Shown here: positions 33,304 through 64,000 of the stretch, piece by piece | Layout: each line of letters opens with the position of its first letter | Position numbering within the stretch: position 1 is the first letter of the stretch | Virus record (IMG/VR): IMGVR_UViG_3300033273_000658 | Coordinates: 32,001 to 96,000 of that record | DNA from: a virus | Reading direction: 5' to 3' (one strand) | Length of the DNA stretch: 64,000 bases | Notes under the pieces: generated by a model | Seen by the model: only the letters and a program-made list of their open reading frames with translations | What the model was told of the DNA's origin: nothing | The model's database searches: none | Program-made: the position numbers and the translations under genes

Positions 33304-33498
33304 ATGGTAGGAAGATTAGTAAAATGGATTCACGATGAGATGCCAACAAATCTTTGTGTAATAATTGATGATTTAGGGTACAAAGAAGATCATATAGTTT
33401 TATCCGAAGAAGAAGAAAATGAAATGCTTTTTCTTTGTTATGACTTTGTAACAAACGAACAATTTTATGCTTTGGAGAATGAACTCCAGTTTATTTAG
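33304..33498 (+). CDS. Small SH3-like hypothetical protein (MVGRLVKW)
   Basis: GGAGG RBS; its stop codon overlaps the first G of the tmRNA. Confidence 0.6.
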   Translation: MVGRLVKWIHDEMPTNLCVIIDDLGYKEDHIVLSEEEENEMLFLCYDFVTNEQFYALENELQFI

Positions 33499-33883
33499 GG
33501 GGCGCAATGGTTTCGACAGGGTAGACATGAAGGACAAGTGCAAGTAGGTAAGAACGACCTTAACAGTTTAAAAAAATTATAATTGCCAATAATAACAATT
33601 ATTTCGAAGTAGCTCAAGCAGCTTAATCGGGTGGTTTCTTTATACCATCAGTCCAAATAAAGATAGTCAGATGGGTGAGACGATAAAGTTATAAGGGAGT
33701 CTAGCGGACTTTGCCGTACCTAAAATGGTTACCCTGTTGGTAGCAGGTGGAACTCTAAGGCTACACAAGAGTTGGTTGGAAAAAAGGTAGCTACTTTGTT
33801 TGTTTAGAGAAACAAAATAAACTTGTGAACGACTTTAATTTATGATGCGCTGGACAGCAGTTCAATTCTGCTCGCCTCCACCA
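33498..33883 (+). ncRNA. ssrA: tmRNA, one-piece; tag (A)ANNNNYFEVAQAA* at 33585-33626
   Basis: 5' GGGGGCG..GGTTTCGAC; 3' T-arm AGCAG-TTCAATT-CTGCT then CGCCTCC-ACCA; G3:U70 alanine identity; resume codon GCC after ATAATT; tag ends in AA. Confidence 0.96.
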
Positions 33884-43827: not shown

Positions 43828-43856
43828 TTGACAGTTACATAAAATTGTGTTATACT
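43828..43856 (+). promoter_or_regulatory. Sigma70 promoter for clpP with AGTTACATAAAATT across the -35 box and spacer
   Basis: TTGACA-N17-TATACT; the 14-mer is identical to the 50.6-50.9 kb repeat. Confidence 0.7.
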
Positions 43857-43861
43857 ATAAA

Positions 43862-43892
43862 GACTGGGGGCGGAAATCCTCGGTCTTTTTTT
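43862..43892 (+). terminator. Rho-independent terminator/attenuator hairpin
   Basis: GACTGGGG/CCTCGGTC followed by T7. Confidence 0.6.
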
Positions 43893-43906
43893 ACTTAGGA
43901 GGTTAC

Positions 43907-44620
43907 ATGAAACACATTATTGAAAGAATCGTAAGGTTCGCAAAAGAAAAGAAAGGAAAAAAGAAATCAAAGGCTGAGGAACCAGCAAAGGAAGTTACAG
44001 AAGAAACCTCCGATAAACAAGAGGAAAAACCAGCTATTGATGTGCAAGCATTATTAAGCGGTATGGCGGATGAAATGGAGAGTAGAACAATGCTTCTCCA
44101 AGGTGAAGTCAATGAAGAGAAAGCAGGAGAAATTATCTCAGGTTTTTTAGCACTAGCAGACCTTAAACCACCCAAAGGAGAACTCAAAGAAGGTGAGATG
44201 CCTTATGACCCAATCACAATGTATGTGTCGACTTATGGTGGTTCAGCAGATGAAATGTTTGCTATCTTTGATATTATGAATCATTGCAAAAAATCATGCC
44301 ATATTGAAACAATTGGGATCGGGAAGGTCATGTCAGCAGGTACCCTTATACTTGCTGCCGGTACGAAAGGAAAGCGAAAAATTTCTAAAAACTGTCGTGT
44401 TATGTTACATCAAGTATCAGCCGGAGCATTCGGTCCCCTATTCAATATGACAACAGAGATTGATGCCATTCAAAAGCTTCAAGATCAATACATTGACGCT
44501 ATGGCTTCTTGTACAAACCTATCAAAAAGGAAGTTGAAATCACTACTTAATGAGAGGGTTAATGTTTATTTGACAGCCGAAGAAGCAGTTGAATATGGAT
44601 TAGCTGACATTATTATTTAG
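43907..44620 (+). CDS. clpP: ClpP-family protease
   Basis: YVSTYGGS, GKVMSAG, RVMLHQ and YLTAEEAVEYGLAD; start after AGGAGG. Confidence 0.88.
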   Translation: MKHIIERIVRFAKEKKGKKKSKAEEPAKEVTEETSDKQEEKPAIDVQALLSGMADEMESRTMLLQGEVNEEKAGEIISGFLALADLKPPKGELKEGEMPYDPITMYVSTYGGSADEMFAIFDIMNHCKKSCHIETIGIGKVMSAGTLILAAGTKGKRKISKNCRVMLHQVSAGAFGPLFNMTTEIDAIQKLQDQYIDAMASCTNLSKRKLKSLLNERVNVYLTAEEAVEYGLADIII

Positions 44621-44630
44621 AGGTTATAAA

Positions 44631-45518
44631 ATGCAAGACAAGATATTTTACAATGAATCATCCGCACAATCTTTGGGCTGGGAACCTTCCTGGCTCGGAG
44701 CAAAAGGATTTGATGATGCTTTGATTAGAAAGATTCGTACTTTCCAACGAGAGAATGGACTCAAACCCGATGGTCTTCTTGGGCCTGGAACATATCGTAG
44801 ACTTTTGGCTCATCGTGAGGCCCAAGAAGAATATAATAATCATGTTGAGATCCAACCTGGGGAGAAAGCAATTCTCTACAAGGGCAAGAAGTTTCCAATC
44901 AAATGGGATAAGGTTGTCCTCCCATCAGATCCAGGCGGCATGGAACACGATAACGGTTATCAGCACATGAAACGCAAGCGCCAAGTATCCATGTTTGTGG
45001 CTCATTGGGATGTCTGTCTTAATTCAAAAACATGTTTTAAGGTTCTGAACAAGACAAGCCGTCAAGCTTCAATACACTTTGCTATTGATAATGACGGAAC
45101 TATCTATCAGTTCCTTGACATGAATCATATTGCTTGGCATGCTTCCAAGCGTATGGTAAACAAGAAGTCTGTTGGTGTGGAGATCTCCAATGCTTATTAT
45201 CCCAAGTATCAAAACTGGTATAAGAAGAATGGTTTTGGAGAGAGACCAATGATAACAGACGCAACTGTTCATGGAAAGAAGATGGAACCATTTATGGATT
45301 TCTATCCTGTGCAGAAAGAAGCATTGAAAGCACTCATGGAAGCTGTGCACAATGCCCTTGGTATTCCTTTGGAAGCACCCGAAGGAGACACCGTTGTTAA
45401 AGATGTTGCATCAGCAAAGTATAAAGGTTTTGTACACCACTACAATGTGGTTAAGAACAAGATTGATTGTGCTGGTCTAAACTTAAATAAATTAATAAAA
45501 GAAATAAAAAACACTTGA
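44631..45518 (+). CDS. Endolysin: peptidoglycan-binding domain plus N-acetylmuramoyl-L-alanine amidase
   Basis: FQRENGLKPDGLLGPGT; SIHFAIDNDGTIYQ, AWHA, SVGVEI and HH...KIDC. Confidence 0.85.
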   Translation: MQDKIFYNESSAQSLGWEPSWLGAKGFDDALIRKIRTFQRENGLKPDGLLGPGTYRRLLAHREAQEEYNNHVEIQPGEKAILYKGKKFPIKWDKVVLPSDPGGMEHDNGYQHMKRKRQVSMFVAHWDVCLNSKTCFKVLNKTSRQASIHFAIDNDGTIYQFLDMNHIAWHASKRMVNKKSVGVEISNAYYPKYQNWYKKNGFGERPMITDATVHGKKMEPFMDFYPVQKEALKALMEAVHNALGIPLEAPEGDTVVKDVASAKYKGFVHHYNVVKNKIDCAGLNLNKLIKEIKNT

Positions 45519-45564
45519 CAACTACCAAAACCGTGTTATATTATTGTATAAGCTTGGAGGCTAA

Positions 45565-47139
45565 ATGTCAAAACAATATAGTAACGGGTCTTCTCTTAAC
45601 GAGAAGATCCTTAAAGGTATGAACGTTCTTGCAGACAATGTGGGAACAACCCTTGGTCCAAAAGGACGCAATGTTATTCTTTATGATAAGAAACAAAACA
45701 TCCCTGTGATCACAAAAGATGGTGTAACCATCGCAAAGTTTGTGGAACTTGAAGACCCATTTGAAAACGTCGGTGTTCAAATCCTAAAACAAGCAGCAGA
45801 ACAATCTGCAAACAAAGCTGGTGATGGAACCACAACCACCACCGTCTTGACTAGAGGAATCATCAACAAGGCTCAGAAGTATCTGACCTCTGGTGTTTCT
45901 CCTATTGAACTCAAACGTGGTATGGACAAAGCATGTGAAGTTATCTGTGAGAAACTTGCAGAACATGCGAGACCTATCCAAACAGAAGAAGACATCTTTC
46001 ACATCGCAACTATTTCTGCTAACAACGACAAGTCTATTGGAACATTAATCTCCAAGGCTATCGATGCAGCAGGTAAAGATGGGACAGTTCTTGTTGAAGA
46101 AGCTCGCTCTGTTAATACATCACTTGATCTCATCGAAGGATTTCGTTTCGATAGTGGCTACATTTCGCCCACATTTATCACGAACGAACGCGCTGGTACG
46201 GTAGACTACGATAGTCCTCTTCTGCTCGTTACAGATGAAAAAGTTGAGACAATAGAACAAATTTTACCTACTCTAGAACTGGCTGCGAGAGAGTCTCGTC
46301 CTCTCATTATTGTTGCTGGTGAAATGGAAGGTCAAGCGTTGGCTGCTGTGATTGCAAATGCTGTCCGTGGCACAATGAAAGTTGCTGCTGTCAAGGCTCC
46401 GAGATACGGAGAAGAAAGACGTAACATCCTCAAAGACCTTTGTGCCTCTGTTGGTGCGACTTTCGTTACAAGAGAAAACGGATTGACCCTGAAAGAAGTT
46501 AAACTAACACACTTCGGTCAATCAAAAAGAATTACAGTATCAAAAGCTTGGACAACAATCGTAGGAGGTAAAGGTGATGAAGAAGAAATTGAAAAGCGTA
46601 TTGAGGCTGTTAAGGCCCTCATTGCTGAAGAAGAGGATCTCCGAGTCTGTGAGCGTCATCAAGAGCGAATCACTAGATTGGCATCCGGAGTGGCCGTTAT
46701 AAAGGTTGGTGCTGCAACTGAGGTTGAAATGATTGAGAAGAAGCATCGTATTGATGATGCTTTGGAAGCTGTTCGTTCGGCACAAGAAGAAGGTATCGTT
46801 CCTGGTGGCGGTGTTTCATTGCTTAAGTCTGTATCTGATATCCAGATTCAAGCAGATAATGATGAGCAAGCCTTGGGTGCCAAGATTGTTGTTGAAGCAG
46901 TTGAAGAACCTATCCGTCAAATGGCAAAGAATGCTGGTCTGTCACCTGACCTTGTTGTTCAGCAAGTTCGTGAGACAACTAGTTTCAATCATGGTATGAA
47001 TTTCTTGACCGGAGACATAGTTAACCTACTAGATTCAGGTGTTATTGACCCAGTTAAAGTTACAAAGTGCGCGTTGCAAAATGCAGTCTCTGTATCATCA
47101 ACTATTATCACAACTAGCCACGCGATTGTGAACTCCTGA
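45565..47139 (+). CDS. groEL: Chaperonin GroEL
   Basis: TLGPKGRNV, TKDGVT, GDGTTT, GIVPGGG and IDPVKV; promoter at 45515-45542. Confidence 0.96.
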   Translation: MSKQYSNGSSLNEKILKGMNVLADNVGTTLGPKGRNVILYDKKQNIPVITKDGVTIAKFVELEDPFENVGVQILKQAAEQSANKAGDGTTTTTVLTRGIINKAQKYLTSGVSPIELKRGMDKACEVICEKLAEHARPIQTEEDIFHIATISANNDKSIGTLISKAIDAAGKDGTVLVEEARSVNTSLDLIEGFRFDSGYISPTFITNERAGTVDYDSPLLLVTDEKVETIEQILPTLELAARESRPLIIVAGEMEGQALAAVIANAVRGTMKVAAVKAPRYGEERRNILKDLCASVGATFVTRENGLTLKEVKLTHFGQSKRITVSKAWTTIVGGKGDEEEIEKRIEAVKALIAEEEDLRVCERHQERITRLASGVAVIKVGAATEVEMIEKKHRIDDALEAVRSAQEEGIVPGGGVSLLKSVSDIQIQADNDEQALGAKIVVEAVEEPIRQMAKNAGLSPDLVVQQVRETTSFNHGMNFLTGDIVNLLDSGVIDPVKVTKCALQNAVSVSSTIITTSHAIVNS

Positions 47140-50141: not shown

Positions 50142-50405
50142 ATGGATTCAATGGATGTAAAATTGCCAACTGAAAAACAAGACTTAATTAGATTATACAT
50201 TTATGTTAACCAAAGAATAAATGAGATCTGGAAAGAGTATGTTGTACACACCAATCTTAAATACGTTTCTGCAACAACAAAGATCTTTGCAATTATTTTT
50301 TGTGAAATGGATTTCTATGAATCTGTTCTAGCTAGAATAAGAGTTCATCTTTCCGAAGATGACATGCAAGAAATGAGAAAGCACGATGCAATTTGGGACT
50401 GGTGA
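50142..50405 (+). CDS. Hypothetical protein
   Basis: 87 aa ORF. Confidence 0.5.
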   Translation: MDSMDVKLPTEKQDLIRLYIYVNQRINEIWKEYVVHTNLKYVSATTKIFAIIFCEMDFYESVLARIRVHLSEDDMQEMRKHDAIWDW

Positions 50406-50580
50406 GCTTGTGTATTTTGAAGACCTTGATGGTCAAATTTACCTGTCTGTTATTCTTGCTGATGGGGTTTCTGGATACGGTGGAGATACGAGAATAATTT
50501 ATGTTATCTACTCAATCGCAAATCGATCCACTTGGTTGGCTTATGAGTCTGAGCTGACTCTAGCCAAAAACTTTACATAA
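50386..50580 (+). CDS. SH3/KOW-like family protein
   Basis: FGTGELVYF...WLAYESEL. Confidence 0.55.
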   Translation: MQFGTGELVYFEDLDGQIYLSVILADGVSGYGGDTRIIYVIYSIANRSTWLAYESELTLAKNFT

Positions 50581-50982
50581 CTTTTTTTATCTAAGTTACA
50601 TAAAATTTTAACAAACTTCATAAAACATGTCAAACTTTTTATGTAACTTTCTTAAAATTGTCTCTTGCAAGAATCATGCCAAAAATGTTTTACATAACTC
50701 AGACACTGAAATCGTGGCTGCAACTACCTTTAAGGTTGTTTTTGGATCATTGCAAGAACCATGCCAAACTTTTTTTACATAACTTTGAACCATTTTAAGC
50801 AAGTTACATAAAATTTTAACAAACTTCATAAAATGACTTGCAAGAATCGTGCCAATTTTTATTTACATAACTCAGGCATCGAAAACAGCTCTACGAGCTT
50901 CCAAAGGCCAGATCGCTTAACTTTACTATGAAGTTACATAAAATTTTAACAAACTTCATAAACTTTAACAAACTTCATAAAA
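50561..50982. repeat. Composite non-coding repeat region
   Basis: Repeat A (AAGTTACATAAAATTTTAACAAACTTCATAAA) at 50593, 50801 and 50931; repeat B (TTGCAAGAAYCRTGCCAA-N8-TACATAACT) at 50665, 50750 and 50838; eight TTACATAA boxes, one inverted at 50639. Confidence 0.92.
50665..50855 (-). promoter_or_regulatory. Three tandem sigma-54 (-24/-12) promoter consensus sites
   Basis: Minus strand reads TTGGCATGATTCTTGCAA, TTGGCATGGTTCTTGCAA and TTGGCACGATTCTTGCAA, each with GG-N10-GC spacing. Confidence 0.7.
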
Positions 50983-51057
50983 AAAGTGAAGAAAAAGTTT
51001 GACAAGGTTATTTTGCTGGGTTAATGAATATTCTGCAACACAAAACATGGAGACAAC

Positions 51058-51216
51058 ATGAAAGTTGGTGACTTGGTAAAGAATAAATACAACAACAAAG
51101 TTGGGATAATAATCTCACATAGTGGACGGCCACACCGTATACTTGGTGTAATGTACAGTGTGTGGATAGATGGACTTGATGTGCTATTACACGAATCAGA
51201 CTTGGAGGTATTATGA
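51058..51216 (+). CDS. Microprotein cassette 1 (52 aa, MKVGDLV...LEVL)
   Basis: Translated by hand; GGAG RBS. Confidence 0.8.
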   Translation: MKVGDLVKNKYNNKVGIIISHSGRPHRILGVMYSVWIDGLDVLLHESDLEVL

Positions 51217-59744: not shown

Positions 59745-59830
59745 ACGGACAAAAAATTTCAACTTTTTTCTTGACAAAATAATTCCAATCCTATAAGCTA
59801 TAAACACTAACCCAAACAAACGGAGTGACC

Positions 59831-60334
59831 ATGAACGCACTAACCAAAAGACAAAACGAAGTCTACAACGACATAATAGATTTTATCATTCACAATCATA
59901 GATCCCCTAGTTATCGTGAGCTAGGTGATAGACTTGGAATTAAAAGCACAAATGGTGTCTTTGACCATGTAAAGGTTCTTAAACAGAAAGGCCTTTTAAG
60001 AAATGAAACAAAGATAACACCTGTTTCTATGCCTAAAAAACAAACAACTAGTGTTTCTCCGTCATGTATTGGGTTAAACAAGACTCAAAAACTACTATTA
60101 TTCACAAGATTATTGACAAAGATAGGTTCAATGCCAAAAGATGAAATCTTATCTAAGTATGGAATCTGCGAAAGAACTTGGAGACGTTGGAAAAAAGATA
60201 TGCATGGAGCCGGTATTGCTGTTTATACATGGCGATGTAAAAAAACAAAGACCTCCTTGGTGGGTACACCCCATGCCTATGTCCAAGCTATGATTGATGA
60301 AATGAATGAAAAATTAAACAAAAGGAGTAAATAA
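59831..60334 (+). CDS. LexA DNA-binding domain fused to a second HTH, lacking the S24 peptidase
   Basis: LTKRQ.EV...SPSYRELGDRLGIKSTNGVFDHVKVLKQKGLL; C-terminal KYGICERTWRRWKKDM. Confidence 0.8.
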   Translation: MNALTKRQNEVYNDIIDFIIHNHRSPSYRELGDRLGIKSTNGVFDHVKVLKQKGLLRNETKITPVSMPKKQTTSVSPSCIGLNKTQKLLLFTRLLTKIGSMPKDEILSKYGICERTWRRWKKDMHGAGIAVYTWRCKKTKTSLVGTPHAYVQAMIDEMNEKLNKRSK

Positions 60335-60926: not shown

Positions 60927-61988
60927 ATGGCTATTGACTTCAAAACATTCTCTAACGTAATCAACCCTATCCTTAACGCAAAGTTCCCTGTCCTCGTTCG
61001 TGGTCGGCACGGTATCGGTAAATCTACCATCGTTTACCAAAAAGCCAAAGAACTCGGTCTGCCTGTCGTAGAGCGTAGAGCATCCCAAATGACTGAGGGG
61101 GACTTGCTTGGCTTGCCAAAGCAATCAGACAATGATGTAACTGAGTGGTGTCCACCAAAGTGGTTCAAGACTGCTTGTGATACCCCTGTTGTCCTCTTCC
61201 TTGATGAAGTAGACCGTGCAACACTTGAAGTCCGTCAAGGTATCTTTGAACTATGCGATAGCCGTAAGATTGCCGGTCGCAGTCTTCATCCCGACACCCT
61301 TATCTTTGCTTGTGTCAATGGCGGAGAACATGGTTCTCAATACCAAGTAGGTGAGATGGATCCCGCAGAACTTGACCGCTACACTGTCTTTGACGTAGAA
61401 CCTACGGTAGAAGATTGGCTTAACTGGGCAAAGGGTAATGTTGCCCAAGAAATCTGGGATTTCATCAATCAGAACCACAATCATCTTGAACACAATGATG
61501 ACTACGAGCCTAACAAGGTTTACCCATCAAGACGTTCTTGGGAACGACTATCCACGACTTTGTCTGGAATGGGCGATCAGATTGAGGGTTCATCTGTAAC
61601 CTACCATATCGCTTGCTCTTTCATTGGCTTTGAGGGTGCAGTGGCATTCAAAGACTTCCTTGACAAATACGATCGTCAAGTCACCATCGAAGATCTTCTA
61701 GATGATGGTAAGTTTGACAAGATCAAAGGTTGGAAAATCAACGATCACAATGCCATGGTCGAAAAGATGAAAGCAAAGAACATCTTTGCAGACCGTCTAT
61801 CCGACACACGTCTTGATAACCTTGCAAAGTACTTCTTGCAACTTCCATCCGAGATTGTCATGGTTCTATGGCAGTCCATGGCTCAGACCGATGAGTCTAC
61901 CTACAACATCGCTAAACTTTGGGCAATCGAAGTGGATGGTACATCTATTCAAGACTATGTTGTCGGTATCCTCAACGCAGGAAACTAA
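60927..61988 (+). CDS. MoxR-like AAA+ ATPase
   Basis: GRHGIGKS, LFLDEVDRA, DPAELDRY and PSRRSW. Confidence 0.88.
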   Translation: MAIDFKTFSNVINPILNAKFPVLVRGRHGIGKSTIVYQKAKELGLPVVERRASQMTEGDLLGLPKQSDNDVTEWCPPKWFKTACDTPVVLFLDEVDRATLEVRQGIFELCDSRKIAGRSLHPDTLIFACVNGGEHGSQYQVGEMDPAELDRYTVFDVEPTVEDWLNWAKGNVAQEIWDFINQNHNHLEHNDDYEPNKVYPSRRSWERLSTTLSGMGDQIEGSSVTYHIACSFIGFEGAVAFKDFLDKYDRQVTIEDLLDDGKFDKIKGWKINDHNAMVEKMKAKNIFADRLSDTRLDNLAKYFLQLPSEIVMVLWQSMAQTDESTYNIAKLWAIEVDGTSIQDYVVGILNAGN

Positions 61989-62594: not shown

Positions 62595-62833
62595 GCAGAC
62601 CAAAATTGCAGTATAGCAACATAACGTACTACGCAATACAAAGGCAAAAGCTGGAGTTTCCACCAGAACTTGAAGAGTTATCTGAACCTTTGGAAGTCAA
62701 GTCATTGGCTCAAAAGATAGAGGAAGCGCACACAAACCTAGATAGAATAGAATTTTCAAAAAAAAACTTGACAATTCCTATCGAACAGAATAATAGTAAA
62801 TTATCACCCCAACAAGGAGATTCCAATGAGTGA
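62591..62833 (+). CDS. Hypothetical protein
   Basis: ATGA-coupled, 80 aa. Confidence 0.5.
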   Translation: MSRPKLQYSNITYYAIQRQKLEFPPELEELSEPLEVKSLAQKIEEAHTNLDRIEFSKKNLTIPIEQNNSKLSPQQGDSNE

Positions 62834-64000
62834 TAACGAAACAACAGAAAAGTTTGACTTGAACATGCACACTTTCCGTTTGCTACAACAAGAACCGTTC
62901 TTCGCAAGTCTTTCAAGACGTATTCACAAAGCACCATCCAAGCACATTCCAACTGCTGGTGTCCGTATCAATCCACAGTCAGCACAGTTTGAGATGCTTT
63001 ACAATCCAGAGTTCATGGCAAGTCTTACAGACAAGCAAAAGCTTGGTGTTCTAATGCACGAGTTTTACCACATCATCTTTGAGCACGTCACCACACGACT
63101 TCCAGCAGAGGGTATGTCTATGAAGTGGAACGTTGCAACAGACCTTGCAATCAACAGTCACATCATGGACATGTTGCCGGAGGGTGGATGTATCCCATCA
63201 AAGGTTGGCACTCCGTTTGAGAACTATCCTGTCGGTCTATCTGCTGAGGCTTATCTAAAGATAATCGAAGAAGATGAGCAGTTCAAGAAAGACGATGGTC
63301 AAGGCCAAGGTGACGGTCAAGGTGGTCAAGGTGACGGAGATCCATCACAAGGGCAAGGCCAAGGTTCATCGCTGGGCGATCATGTTCTTGACGATCATAG
63401 TGGCTGGGGCGATGTAGATGAAGAGACAAAGGCTATGGCCAAAGAGCGTTTGAAAGACGCTATGGAGAAAGCCGCAAAGGATGCGTCAAGCGGTCAAGGC
63501 TGGGGTTCTGTATCGGCAGACGTTCGTAAGCAGATCATGGACGCTATCACACCGAAGATTGACTGGCGCAAGGTTCTTCGATACTTCATCAAGACCTCAC
63601 AGCGTAGCAACAAGCGATCAACCGTTCGCAGATTGAACCGTAGGTTCCCTTACATTCATGCTGGCCGAAAGGTTACACGTCAAGCCAAGATTGCTATCAG
63701 CATTGACCAATCGGGTTCTGTTTCAGACACCATGCTTGCCTCATTCTTCGCAGAACTCAATAGCCTATCAAGCCTTGCCGAGTTTACCGTTGTGCCTTTC
63801 GATACCGAAGTAGATGAGAGCCTTGTCTACACATGGAAGAAAGGTGAGCGCAAGACATGGGAGCGTGTCAAGTGTGGTGGCACATGCTTTGACGCTCCGA
63901 CACGATACGTCAATGAGAACGGTTTCGATGGTCACATCATCTTGACTGACATGGAGGCTCCAAAGCCGATAGCCAGCAAGTGCCAACGCATGTGGATGAC
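62826..64000 (+). CDS. DUF2201-type HExxH metallopeptidase plus VWA domain protein (runs off the window end; not in ORF track)
   Basis: MSDNE...EPFFASL...IPTAGV...YNPEF...LMHEFYH...WNVATDLAIN, GQG linker, IDQSGS, FDTEV and GGT.F. Confidence 0.85.
   Translation, partial: MSDNETTEKFDLNMHTFRLLQQEPFFASLSRRIHKAPSKHIPTAGVRINPQSAQFEMLYNPEFMASLTDKQKLGVLMHEFYHIIFEHVTTRLPAEGMSMKWNVATDLAINSHIMDMLPEGGCIPSKVGTPFENYPVGLSAEAYLKIIEEDEQFKKDDGQGQGDGQGGQGDGDPSQGQGQGSSLGDHVLDDHSGWGDVDEETKAMAKERLKDAMEKAAKDASSGQGWGSVSADVRKQIMDAITPKIDWRKVLRYFIKTSQRSNKRSTVRRLNRRFPYIHAGRKVTRQAKIAISIDQSGSVSDTMLASFFAELNSLSSLAEFTVVPFDTEVDESLVYTWKKGERKTWERVKCGGTCFDAPTRYVNENGFDGHIILTDMEAPKPIASKCQRMWM

Follow-up and report, generated by a model that had tools for sequence, protein, structure and literature searches.

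The window, that is, the whole stretch of 64,000 nucleotides analyzed here, spans bases 32001-96000 of a 141,005-bp IMG/VR virus record (completeness ~78%, GC content ~37%) in which every long ORF lies on the plus strand. The record is that of a large myovirus, encoding a tail sheath, a DnaB helicase, a PolIII-alpha-type polymerase, a ribonucleotide reductase, GroEL, and ClpP, and it is of marine origin, its related contigs coming from TARA Oceans and other marine samples. Searches with blastn and tblastn retrieved no near relative among cultured phages, and neither the composite element described below nor the phage polymerase was found in the 185,579 species genomes searched. The Myxococcus host to which the sequence-only reading had alluded is not applicable to a phage of 37% GC from marine metagenomes; judging from Shine-Dalgarno sites and TTGACA/TATAAT promoters, the host would be one that uses sigma-70 in the canonical way. 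The genome also carries a standard full-length tmRNA gene (window 33498-33883, plus strand; Rfam RF00023, 101.9 bits) with the predicted tag ANNNNYFEVAQAA, a tmRNA type that is not decisive for the host, and, in a row at window 43847-47139 (plus strand), genes for a ClpP-like protease, an amidase with a peptidoglycan-binding domain, and a full-length GroEL. Using GroEL as a marker, we recovered 257 related viral contigs. A LexA-type DNA-binding domain (PF01726, 49 bits) is present in a 169-aa protein (window 59825-60334, plus strand), of which no homologue was found in the phage genomes G001, G003, G005, G008, and G009.

At the locus of interest, an island devoid of genes follows the end of a conserved 64-aa gene (50386-50580, plus strand) and is followed by the first small early gene (51058-51216, plus strand), which has a GGAGA ribosome-binding site 5 nt upstream. 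Three sigma-54-like cores are carried by the minus strand of this island: core A, TTGGCACGATTCTTGCAA (50855-50838), matches the extended consensus TGGCACG-N4-TTGCW at 12/12 positions, and cores B, TTGGCATGGTTCTTGCAA (50767-50750), and C, TTGGCATGATTCTTGCAA (50682-50665), match it at 11/12. These sites are exactly as the sequence-only reading had described them, 85 and 88 bp apart and each with AGTTATGTA 8 nt upstream, and the strand that carries them is indeed gene-free, the long ORFs being all on the plus strand and no credible minus-strand gene following the sites. Each core is preceded by an 11-bp box, AGTTAYGTAAA, hereafter called block C: in composite A, it reads AGTTATGTAAA (50862-50872, minus strand) and lies 6 nt upstream of TTGGCA, and its counterparts in composites B and C occupy 50774-50784 and 50689-50699 (both minus strand). 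A decayed fourth composite (50556-50582, minus strand), with an intact block C and a degenerate core TTGGCTAGAGTCAGCTC, overlaps the stop codon of the 64-aa gene.

The best promoter match of this island (island 1) is P_L, a leftward sigma-70-type promoter (50605-50633, minus strand; TTGACA-17-TAAAAT, 11/12, TG-extended), and a block C variant, AGTTACATAAA (50638-50648, minus strand), stands 4 nt upstream of its -35 hexamer. On the other side, the rightward early promoter P_R (50999-51027, plus strand) is made of an A-tract, GTTTGACA, 17 nt, and TAATGA, and faces the first microgene; it was read from the sequence, being below the promoter-scan threshold, and relatives have a stronger TTGACA-17-TATATT/TATAAT at its position. 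The island finally contains a quasi-palindromic repeat, D1 (AAGTTACATAAAATTTTAACAAACTTCATAAAA), on the plus strand, whose copy 1 (50593-50625) includes the -10 and spacer of P_L, whose copy 2 (50801-50833) adjoins core A leftward, at and beyond the leftward start predicted near 50828, and whose copy 3, with a partial tandem copy (50931-50982), lies between composite A and P_R.

The cores are not confined to this island. In the window, the degenerate pattern has three matches, cores A to C only, versus 0.30 expected from shuffles. We then carried out the whole-genome scoring that the sequence-only reading had proposed, with TGGCACG-N4-TTGCW as the pattern, GG and GC as obligatory positions, and 300 Markov-2 simulated genomes as background: 14 sites of at least 11/12 were found in the 141-kb record (13 minus, 1 plus; simulated mean 0.55, maximum 5), including six perfect 12/12 sites (simulated mean 0.02). 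Twelve minus-strand sites are clustered in five gene-free islands, at 82.6, 97.2, 100.5, 102.4, and 104.3 kb of the genome, which span a 22-kb early region. The 13th minus-strand site (genome 1532), located within an ORF, looks like a chance match, and the only plus-strand site (genome 102359) is the head-to-head partner of the site at 102379. This pair (genome 102359-102394; 6359-6394 of L154) has a common -12 region, TTGCA-ATAT-TGCAA, and the same overlapping head-to-head geometry is also seen in viral contigs L158, L160, and L218.

All clustered sites have the shape of a composite, which reads on the minus strand AGTTAYGTAAA, 6 nt, TTGGCAY, 5 nt, TTGCA. We collected 53 distinct composites from this genome and from related viral contigs, reached via GroEL and via the motif, and the composite pattern, with its 6-nt gap, matched 17 stretches in viral contigs. 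The spacing between box and core is identical in 52 of the 53, and three copies, in islands 3 and 4, carry the box variants GTGAAA, GTCAAA, and GACAAT. A search of the relatives for variation at the GG and GC positions or in their spacing, the refuting outcome named by the sequence-only reading, returned none: TTGGCA and TTGC are present in 52/52 distinct copies, and the GG-N10-GC separation is exact in these as in the three sites of the window. Across the 52 composites of strict spacing, the core varies at -21 (C in 44, T in 8), -20 (G in 31, A in 21), and -11 (A in 44, C in 5, T in 3), its spacer has one free and two T-rich positions, and the 6-nt linker between box and core is A/T-rich and otherwise free; an A/T-rich patch covers positions -4 to +1 relative to the predicted leftward start.

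The half-sites TTGGCA and TTGCAA differ, and this asymmetry is found in all 52 copies, which argues for an oriented recognition rather than for a symmetric dimer; the palindromic operator of a dimeric repressor is disfavored on this ground, two equivalent inverted half-sites being absent. The fixed 6-bp coupling further suggests that the binder of the box interacts with the binder of the core. As for the identity of the box, IHF, DnaA, TyrR, Fis, and boxA sites were compared with it by eye and fit poorly. This composite nature with a separable 11-bp box, the divergent siting upstream of an early sigma-70 promoter, and the existence of a genome-wide, clade-specific set were overlooked in the sequence-only reading.

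With regard to what binds the core, the composites vary only in the spacer and at -21, -20, and -11, where the sigma-54 consensus admits Y, R, and W, respectively (PMC4591121), which supports an RpoN -24/-12 reading. Compared with the ChIP-verified E. coli pspG site TTGGCATGATTCTTGTA listed in PMC4591121, core C is identical at 16/17 positions, and at the single mismatch it is core C that has the consensus C and is hence closer to consensus. The RpoN identity put forward by the sequence-only reading is therefore well supported, by the consensus match as by the tolerated variation; the functions that it proposed for the sites (decoy, source of antisense or primer RNAs, roadblock) are weighed below. 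On the strength of their sequence, we read these cores as genuine docking sites for the host sigma-54 holoenzyme; the search for an RpoN DNA-binding domain in the phage found none, and its relatives encode no RpoN either.

Alternatively, the whole composite could be bound by a phage protein or complex, its likeness to a sigma-54 site being incidental. Indeed, the copies share descent, so that their invariance is not independent evidence, chance look-alikes can arise when very many windows are scanned, and the fixed-spacing coupling would suit a single multi-domain binder. What speaks against such a coincidence is that 12/12 consensus positions are matched, that the degeneracy falls exactly where sigma-54 is tolerant, and that the core recurs with unrelated flanks in many viral contigs. 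This recurrence was assessed at loci chosen by the perfect site TTGGCACG-N4-TTGCAA versus a reversed-pattern control: among the matches listed, 36 of 116 viral loci have at least two cores and 17 at least three, with a maximum of 16, versus one core in total across the 119 loci of the reversed control, also among the matches listed. The core arrays of these other contigs have different flanks, at 28-63% GC. That one bipartite module keeps its spacing in such diverse settings points to a shared, conserved binder, most simply host sigma-54. These loci are not all independent, one array-bearing contig (G013) being from the same broad phage family, and the assignment to sense or antisense is ambiguous for 76 of 96 sites in other contigs. 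Dense arrays occur in IMG/VR contigs L184, L203, L196, and L171, with up to 16 cores in 6.5 kb.

The distribution of the box bears on the same alternative. In a GroEL tree of the quick kind, the composite-bearing phages form one supported clade (14 rows), and its sister group (G001, L030-L033) has block C alone, as AGTTATGTAAAGTTTTTTG, without the sigma-54 core. The boxes of this sister group are present in 1-4 copies, on the gene-sense strand when read CTTTACATAACT, 24-28 or 100-160 bp apart, and they precede a rightward promoter of the same kind by ~100-130 bp; the L042 group has a box variant, ACTTTACATAATTAA, and neither box nor core was found in the outgroup genomes. Since the sister clade has the box only, box array and sigma-54-like core are separable modules, and the quick GroEL tree does not polarize gain versus loss of the core. 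The box alone, in the same position and orientation, makes a box-binding factor very likely, which is an argument for a phage factor recognizing the whole composite. A phyletic screen for the box binder was performed, which returned 19 ORFs that this phage shares with G001 and that are missing from G003 and G005; no DNA-binding Pfam domain was found among these 19, nor was any DNA-binding candidate found to track core or box, which counts against the phage-factor alternative. Overall, we consider it unlikely that the sigma-54 likeness is incidental. The best-conserved ORF of the screen, of the Acb5 family (PF26761), is widespread in marine data; it encodes 109 aa (genome 121104-121433; 16104-16433 of L153, plus strand), is 78-88% identical across relatives, and is a candidate anti-defense gene.

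In all five islands, as in the islands of the relatives G008 and G009 and in loci L011-L023, the elements follow the same order on the plus strand. First comes the end of a plus-strand gene, often with a terminator-like hairpin and sometimes with a Fur-like palindrome, TGAGAATCATTCTCA; then come one to three leftward composites and a 50-130 bp spacer, followed by an A-tract, GTTTGACA, a gap of 16-18 nt (15 nt in one island), and a rightward TATAAT-like hexamer, and, last, by small plus-strand genes with a ribosome-binding site. The composites of each island thus face away from a rightward sigma-70-type promoter, which they precede by 50-130 bp, and their strand bias is absolute: the 12 clustered sites are minus here, the counts are 10/0 in G008 and 0/7 in G009, and the sites always oppose the genes. 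Because of this constant order and absolute bias, the composites are, by their siting, the divergent partners of the predicted early sigma-70 promoters.

Several side observations were made in these islands. The perfect 7-1-7 palindrome TGAGAATCATTCTCA, which resembles a Fur box, occurs in islands 3-5 at genome 102334, 102485, and 104213 (6334, 6485, and 8213 of L154), with a variant at genome 100497-100515; it is found at or just downstream of predicted leftward sigma-54 starts and once between composites and P_R. In islands of the relatives L011, L013, L015, L017, and G001 (L105, L108, L110, L112), the -35 hexamer of the rightward early promoter is preceded at 20-30 bp by another palindrome, CGGACA-N5-TGTCCG (or TGACC), which island 1 lacks. 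A hairpin, GAGCCGAAAATTTCGGCTC (genome 104171-104189; 8171-8189 of L154), is terminator-like on both strands, and since it lies ~100 nt to the left of the final sigma-54 site in island 5, a short leftward RNA would be possible there.

The order of the island elements offers the composites in the very position expected of a roadblock, by which closed complexes lying between an operon terminator and the next promoter would stop read-through or shield the early promoter: in several islands, they stand in tandem copies after plus-strand terminator-like hairpins and before P_R. We nevertheless find such an insulator quite unlikely, since intrinsic terminators are already there, many other strong promoters of the genome do without the sites, and E. 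coli genes with bound sigma-54 sites were not down-regulated, the authors judging a roadblock unlikely (PMC4591121). As a matter of fact, about 28 plus-strand sigma-70-type promoters of at least 11/12, ten of them perfect, are found genome-wide, most of them without composites, which accompany this early region only. The ten perfect sequences of the gene strand read TTGACA-16/17-TATAAT, and examples of these promoters lie at genome 727, 49437, 53290, 55301, 68164, 71893, 79430, 119885, and 128018. The opposite strand has about 10 sigma-70-type promoters of at least 11/12, and antisense promoters of this type may be common in the phage.

It is also extremely unlikely, in our opinion, that the composites are phage-specific promoters read on the plus strand, as TTGCAA-N5-GTGCCAA-N6-TTTACRTAACT toward the genes. 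Such a reading would match the gene orientation, and TTGCAA resembles a -35 hexamer with an A-tract upstream; however, no copy has a -10 partner for TTGCAA at 16-18 bp, a canonical sigma-70 promoter always intervenes between composites and genes, the sister-clade boxes 24-28 bp apart are too near each other for promoters, and neither a phage sigma factor nor a T7-type RNA polymerase was found. With regard to these last searches, no sigma-70-family factor was found in the phage fragment or its relatives, and the blank for a T7-type RNA polymerase in the phage or its relatives is a weak one, as the PF00940 control matched nowhere.

P_L bears on possible leftward transcription. It is directed into the 3' end of the conserved 64-aa plus-strand gene (50386-50580), to which leftward transcripts from P_L or from the sigma-54 sites would be antisense. 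Relatives have at this place TTGACA-17-TATAAT or TATATT, with a palindrome AACAAnTTTGTT in the spacer, and in the sister clade, a leftward promoter of this kind lies leftward of a block C; this conservation in relatives and sister clade makes leftward noncoding transcription from island 1 plausibly an old feature, and it lends indirect support to the cores as leftward promoters. In phage lambda, the leftward host-polymerase promoter p_O, located at the end of a rightward gene, yields the short OOP RNA, antisense to the 3' end of that gene. This geometry is matched by the predicted P_L of island 1 and not by the sigma-54 cores. Leftward transcripts of the islands could in principle prime or activate phage DNA replication instead, a role for which A/T-rich and repeat-rich islands with leftward promoters, in a phage encoding a DnaB helicase and a PolIII-alpha-type polymerase, would be suited. 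We regard this as very unlikely, given that five similar islands lie within 22 kb, that neither an initiator nor an iteron system was identified, and that GC skew does not switch at the island.

Starting from the direct results obtained here, namely the sequence match, its conservation, the box coupling, the architecture, and the clade distribution, we propose, with a rough probability of 0.4, that the cores are host sigma-54 holoenzyme docking sites acting as poised, activator-dependent leftward promoters of noncoding antisense RNA, coupled to a box-binding factor. According to this antisense-promoter reading, the islands would be regions of divergent control, in which leftward composites are set against a strong rightward sigma-70 promoter for the next early gene block. 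Holoenzyme would be parked on the cores as a stable closed complex, a second factor probably binding the 11-bp box, 6 bp away from the core, and leftward firing, with predicted starts near 50828, 50740, and 50655, would be triggered by an activator, which may be the box-binding factor itself or an enhancer-binding protein of the host that acts from solution. The product would be a noncoding RNA antisense to the preceding operon, adding to the output of P_L in island 1. Sigma-54 binding, firing, and the antisense role are what we infer beyond the direct results.

Against the antisense-promoter reading must be weighed that there is no phage activator and no downstream minus-strand product, and that the overlapping pair 102359/102379 cannot be productive both ways. 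The sequencing runs listed for this region gave DNA contigs of small share and no RNA run. Indeed, downstream of the cores on the minus strand, we found no coding-like ORF, no Rfam family, no conserved structured RNA, and no conserved sequence between sites. No enhancer-binding protein (PF00158 above cut-off) was found in the record, in its relatives, or in five other array-bearing records; a weak PF00158 match was rejected as an activator, since it is a CobS-like protein of the AAA_5 type, accompanied by a VWA partner, and also occurs in core-less phages. These two proteins (window 60927-61988 and 62826-64000, plus strand), which are an AAA_5 ATPase and a DUF2201 metallopeptidase/VWA protein, form a CobS/CobT-like or MoxR-like pair that is conserved throughout the wider phage family, also where sigma-54 cores are missing. 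Apart from the box, which is unusually close, at -34 to -44, the composites have no recognizable activator site upstream that all of them share, and the palindromes seen in some islands are not common to all.

These absences would be expected if the sites were a nonproductive sink, which is the main rival of the antisense-promoter reading: they would bind sigma-54, alone or as holoenzyme, and never fire, so that at least 13 sites per genome would titrate a scarce sigma-54. Replication-driven titration could then damp the sigma-54 regulon or shift the competition between sigma factors, and the box factor may stabilize the capture. Multicopy sites of consensus strength with neither a downstream gene nor an activator gene would suit such a sink, and in E. 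coli, most such sigma-54 sites are bound yet transcriptionally inactive (PMC4591121). The geometry of other contigs also goes in this direction, some arrays having cores spaced by 26-29 bp or overlapping head-to-head, as one pair does here; such cores are unsuited to productive initiation, and this geometry, on the sequence, fits binding better than initiation. Tandem copies 26-29 bp apart are also too tight for several holoenzymes at once. However, a pure sink needs neither the fixed orientation, nor the position upstream of early promoters, nor the 6-bp coupling to the box, and the capture of holoenzyme would cost core polymerase that the phage needs for its roughly 30 sigma-70 promoters. 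We therefore see the sink as a serious competitor that is nonetheless somewhat doubtful.

Bacterial sigma-54 -24/-12 promoters such as pspG, pspA, and glnAp2 have in common with the phage cores the bipartite element, the GG-N10-GC separation, and the tolerated degeneracy. Unlike them, the phage cores are followed by no gene and lack both an identifiable enhancer site at 80-150 bp upstream and an activator gene; they are also antisense to every gene, arranged in tandem arrays, and abutted on their -24 side by an 11-bp box. The intragenic and antisense sigma-54 sites of E. coli (Bonocora et al. 2015, PMC4591121) are consensus-like, as the phage cores are; they are bound by a transcriptionally inactive holoenzyme, many being antisense or far from genes and some being conserved. 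These E. coli sites are scattered, single, and intragenic, whereas the phage sites are intergenic, arrayed, and fixed relative to early promoters. Among phages, the Pseudomonas phage YuA is reported to use sigma-54-like promoters (Ceyssens 2008, as cited and remapped in PMC10914365). YuA resembles this phage in having no RNA polymerase of its own and in bearing promoter sequences of host sigma-54 type besides sigma-70 ones, but its sigma-54-like region coincides with a mapped start site and so drives transcription (PMC10914365), when the sites analyzed here oppose the genes, are arrayed, and are fused to a box. Our literature searches found no description of sigma-54-site arrays on phage DNA. 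What is known is thus the sigma-54 site as a textbook element, and what is new is its predicted occurrence on phage DNA in arrays that are antisense to all genes, fused to a box, and divergent to early promoters.

Since such arrays recur in other viral contigs, the phenomenon seems to be a general one rather than the quirk of a single genome. We tentatively envision, as a possibility on the unlikely side, a recurrent phage strategy in which host sigma-54 is captured by DNA sites and in which the box binder locks or triggers the complex, thereby letting phages that have neither a sigma-54 gene nor an activator either drain the host pool or turn poised polymerases into a switchable antisense brake on early operons. 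Mapping in E. coli has yielded numerous inactive sites and left open the role of poised sigma-54 complexes; if the phage sites were bound by holoenzyme, they would provide a natural test case for the role of such complexes when poised without an activator. They would also represent a possible route by which a phage, with DNA alone, may read or disable the stress and nutrient regulon of its host.
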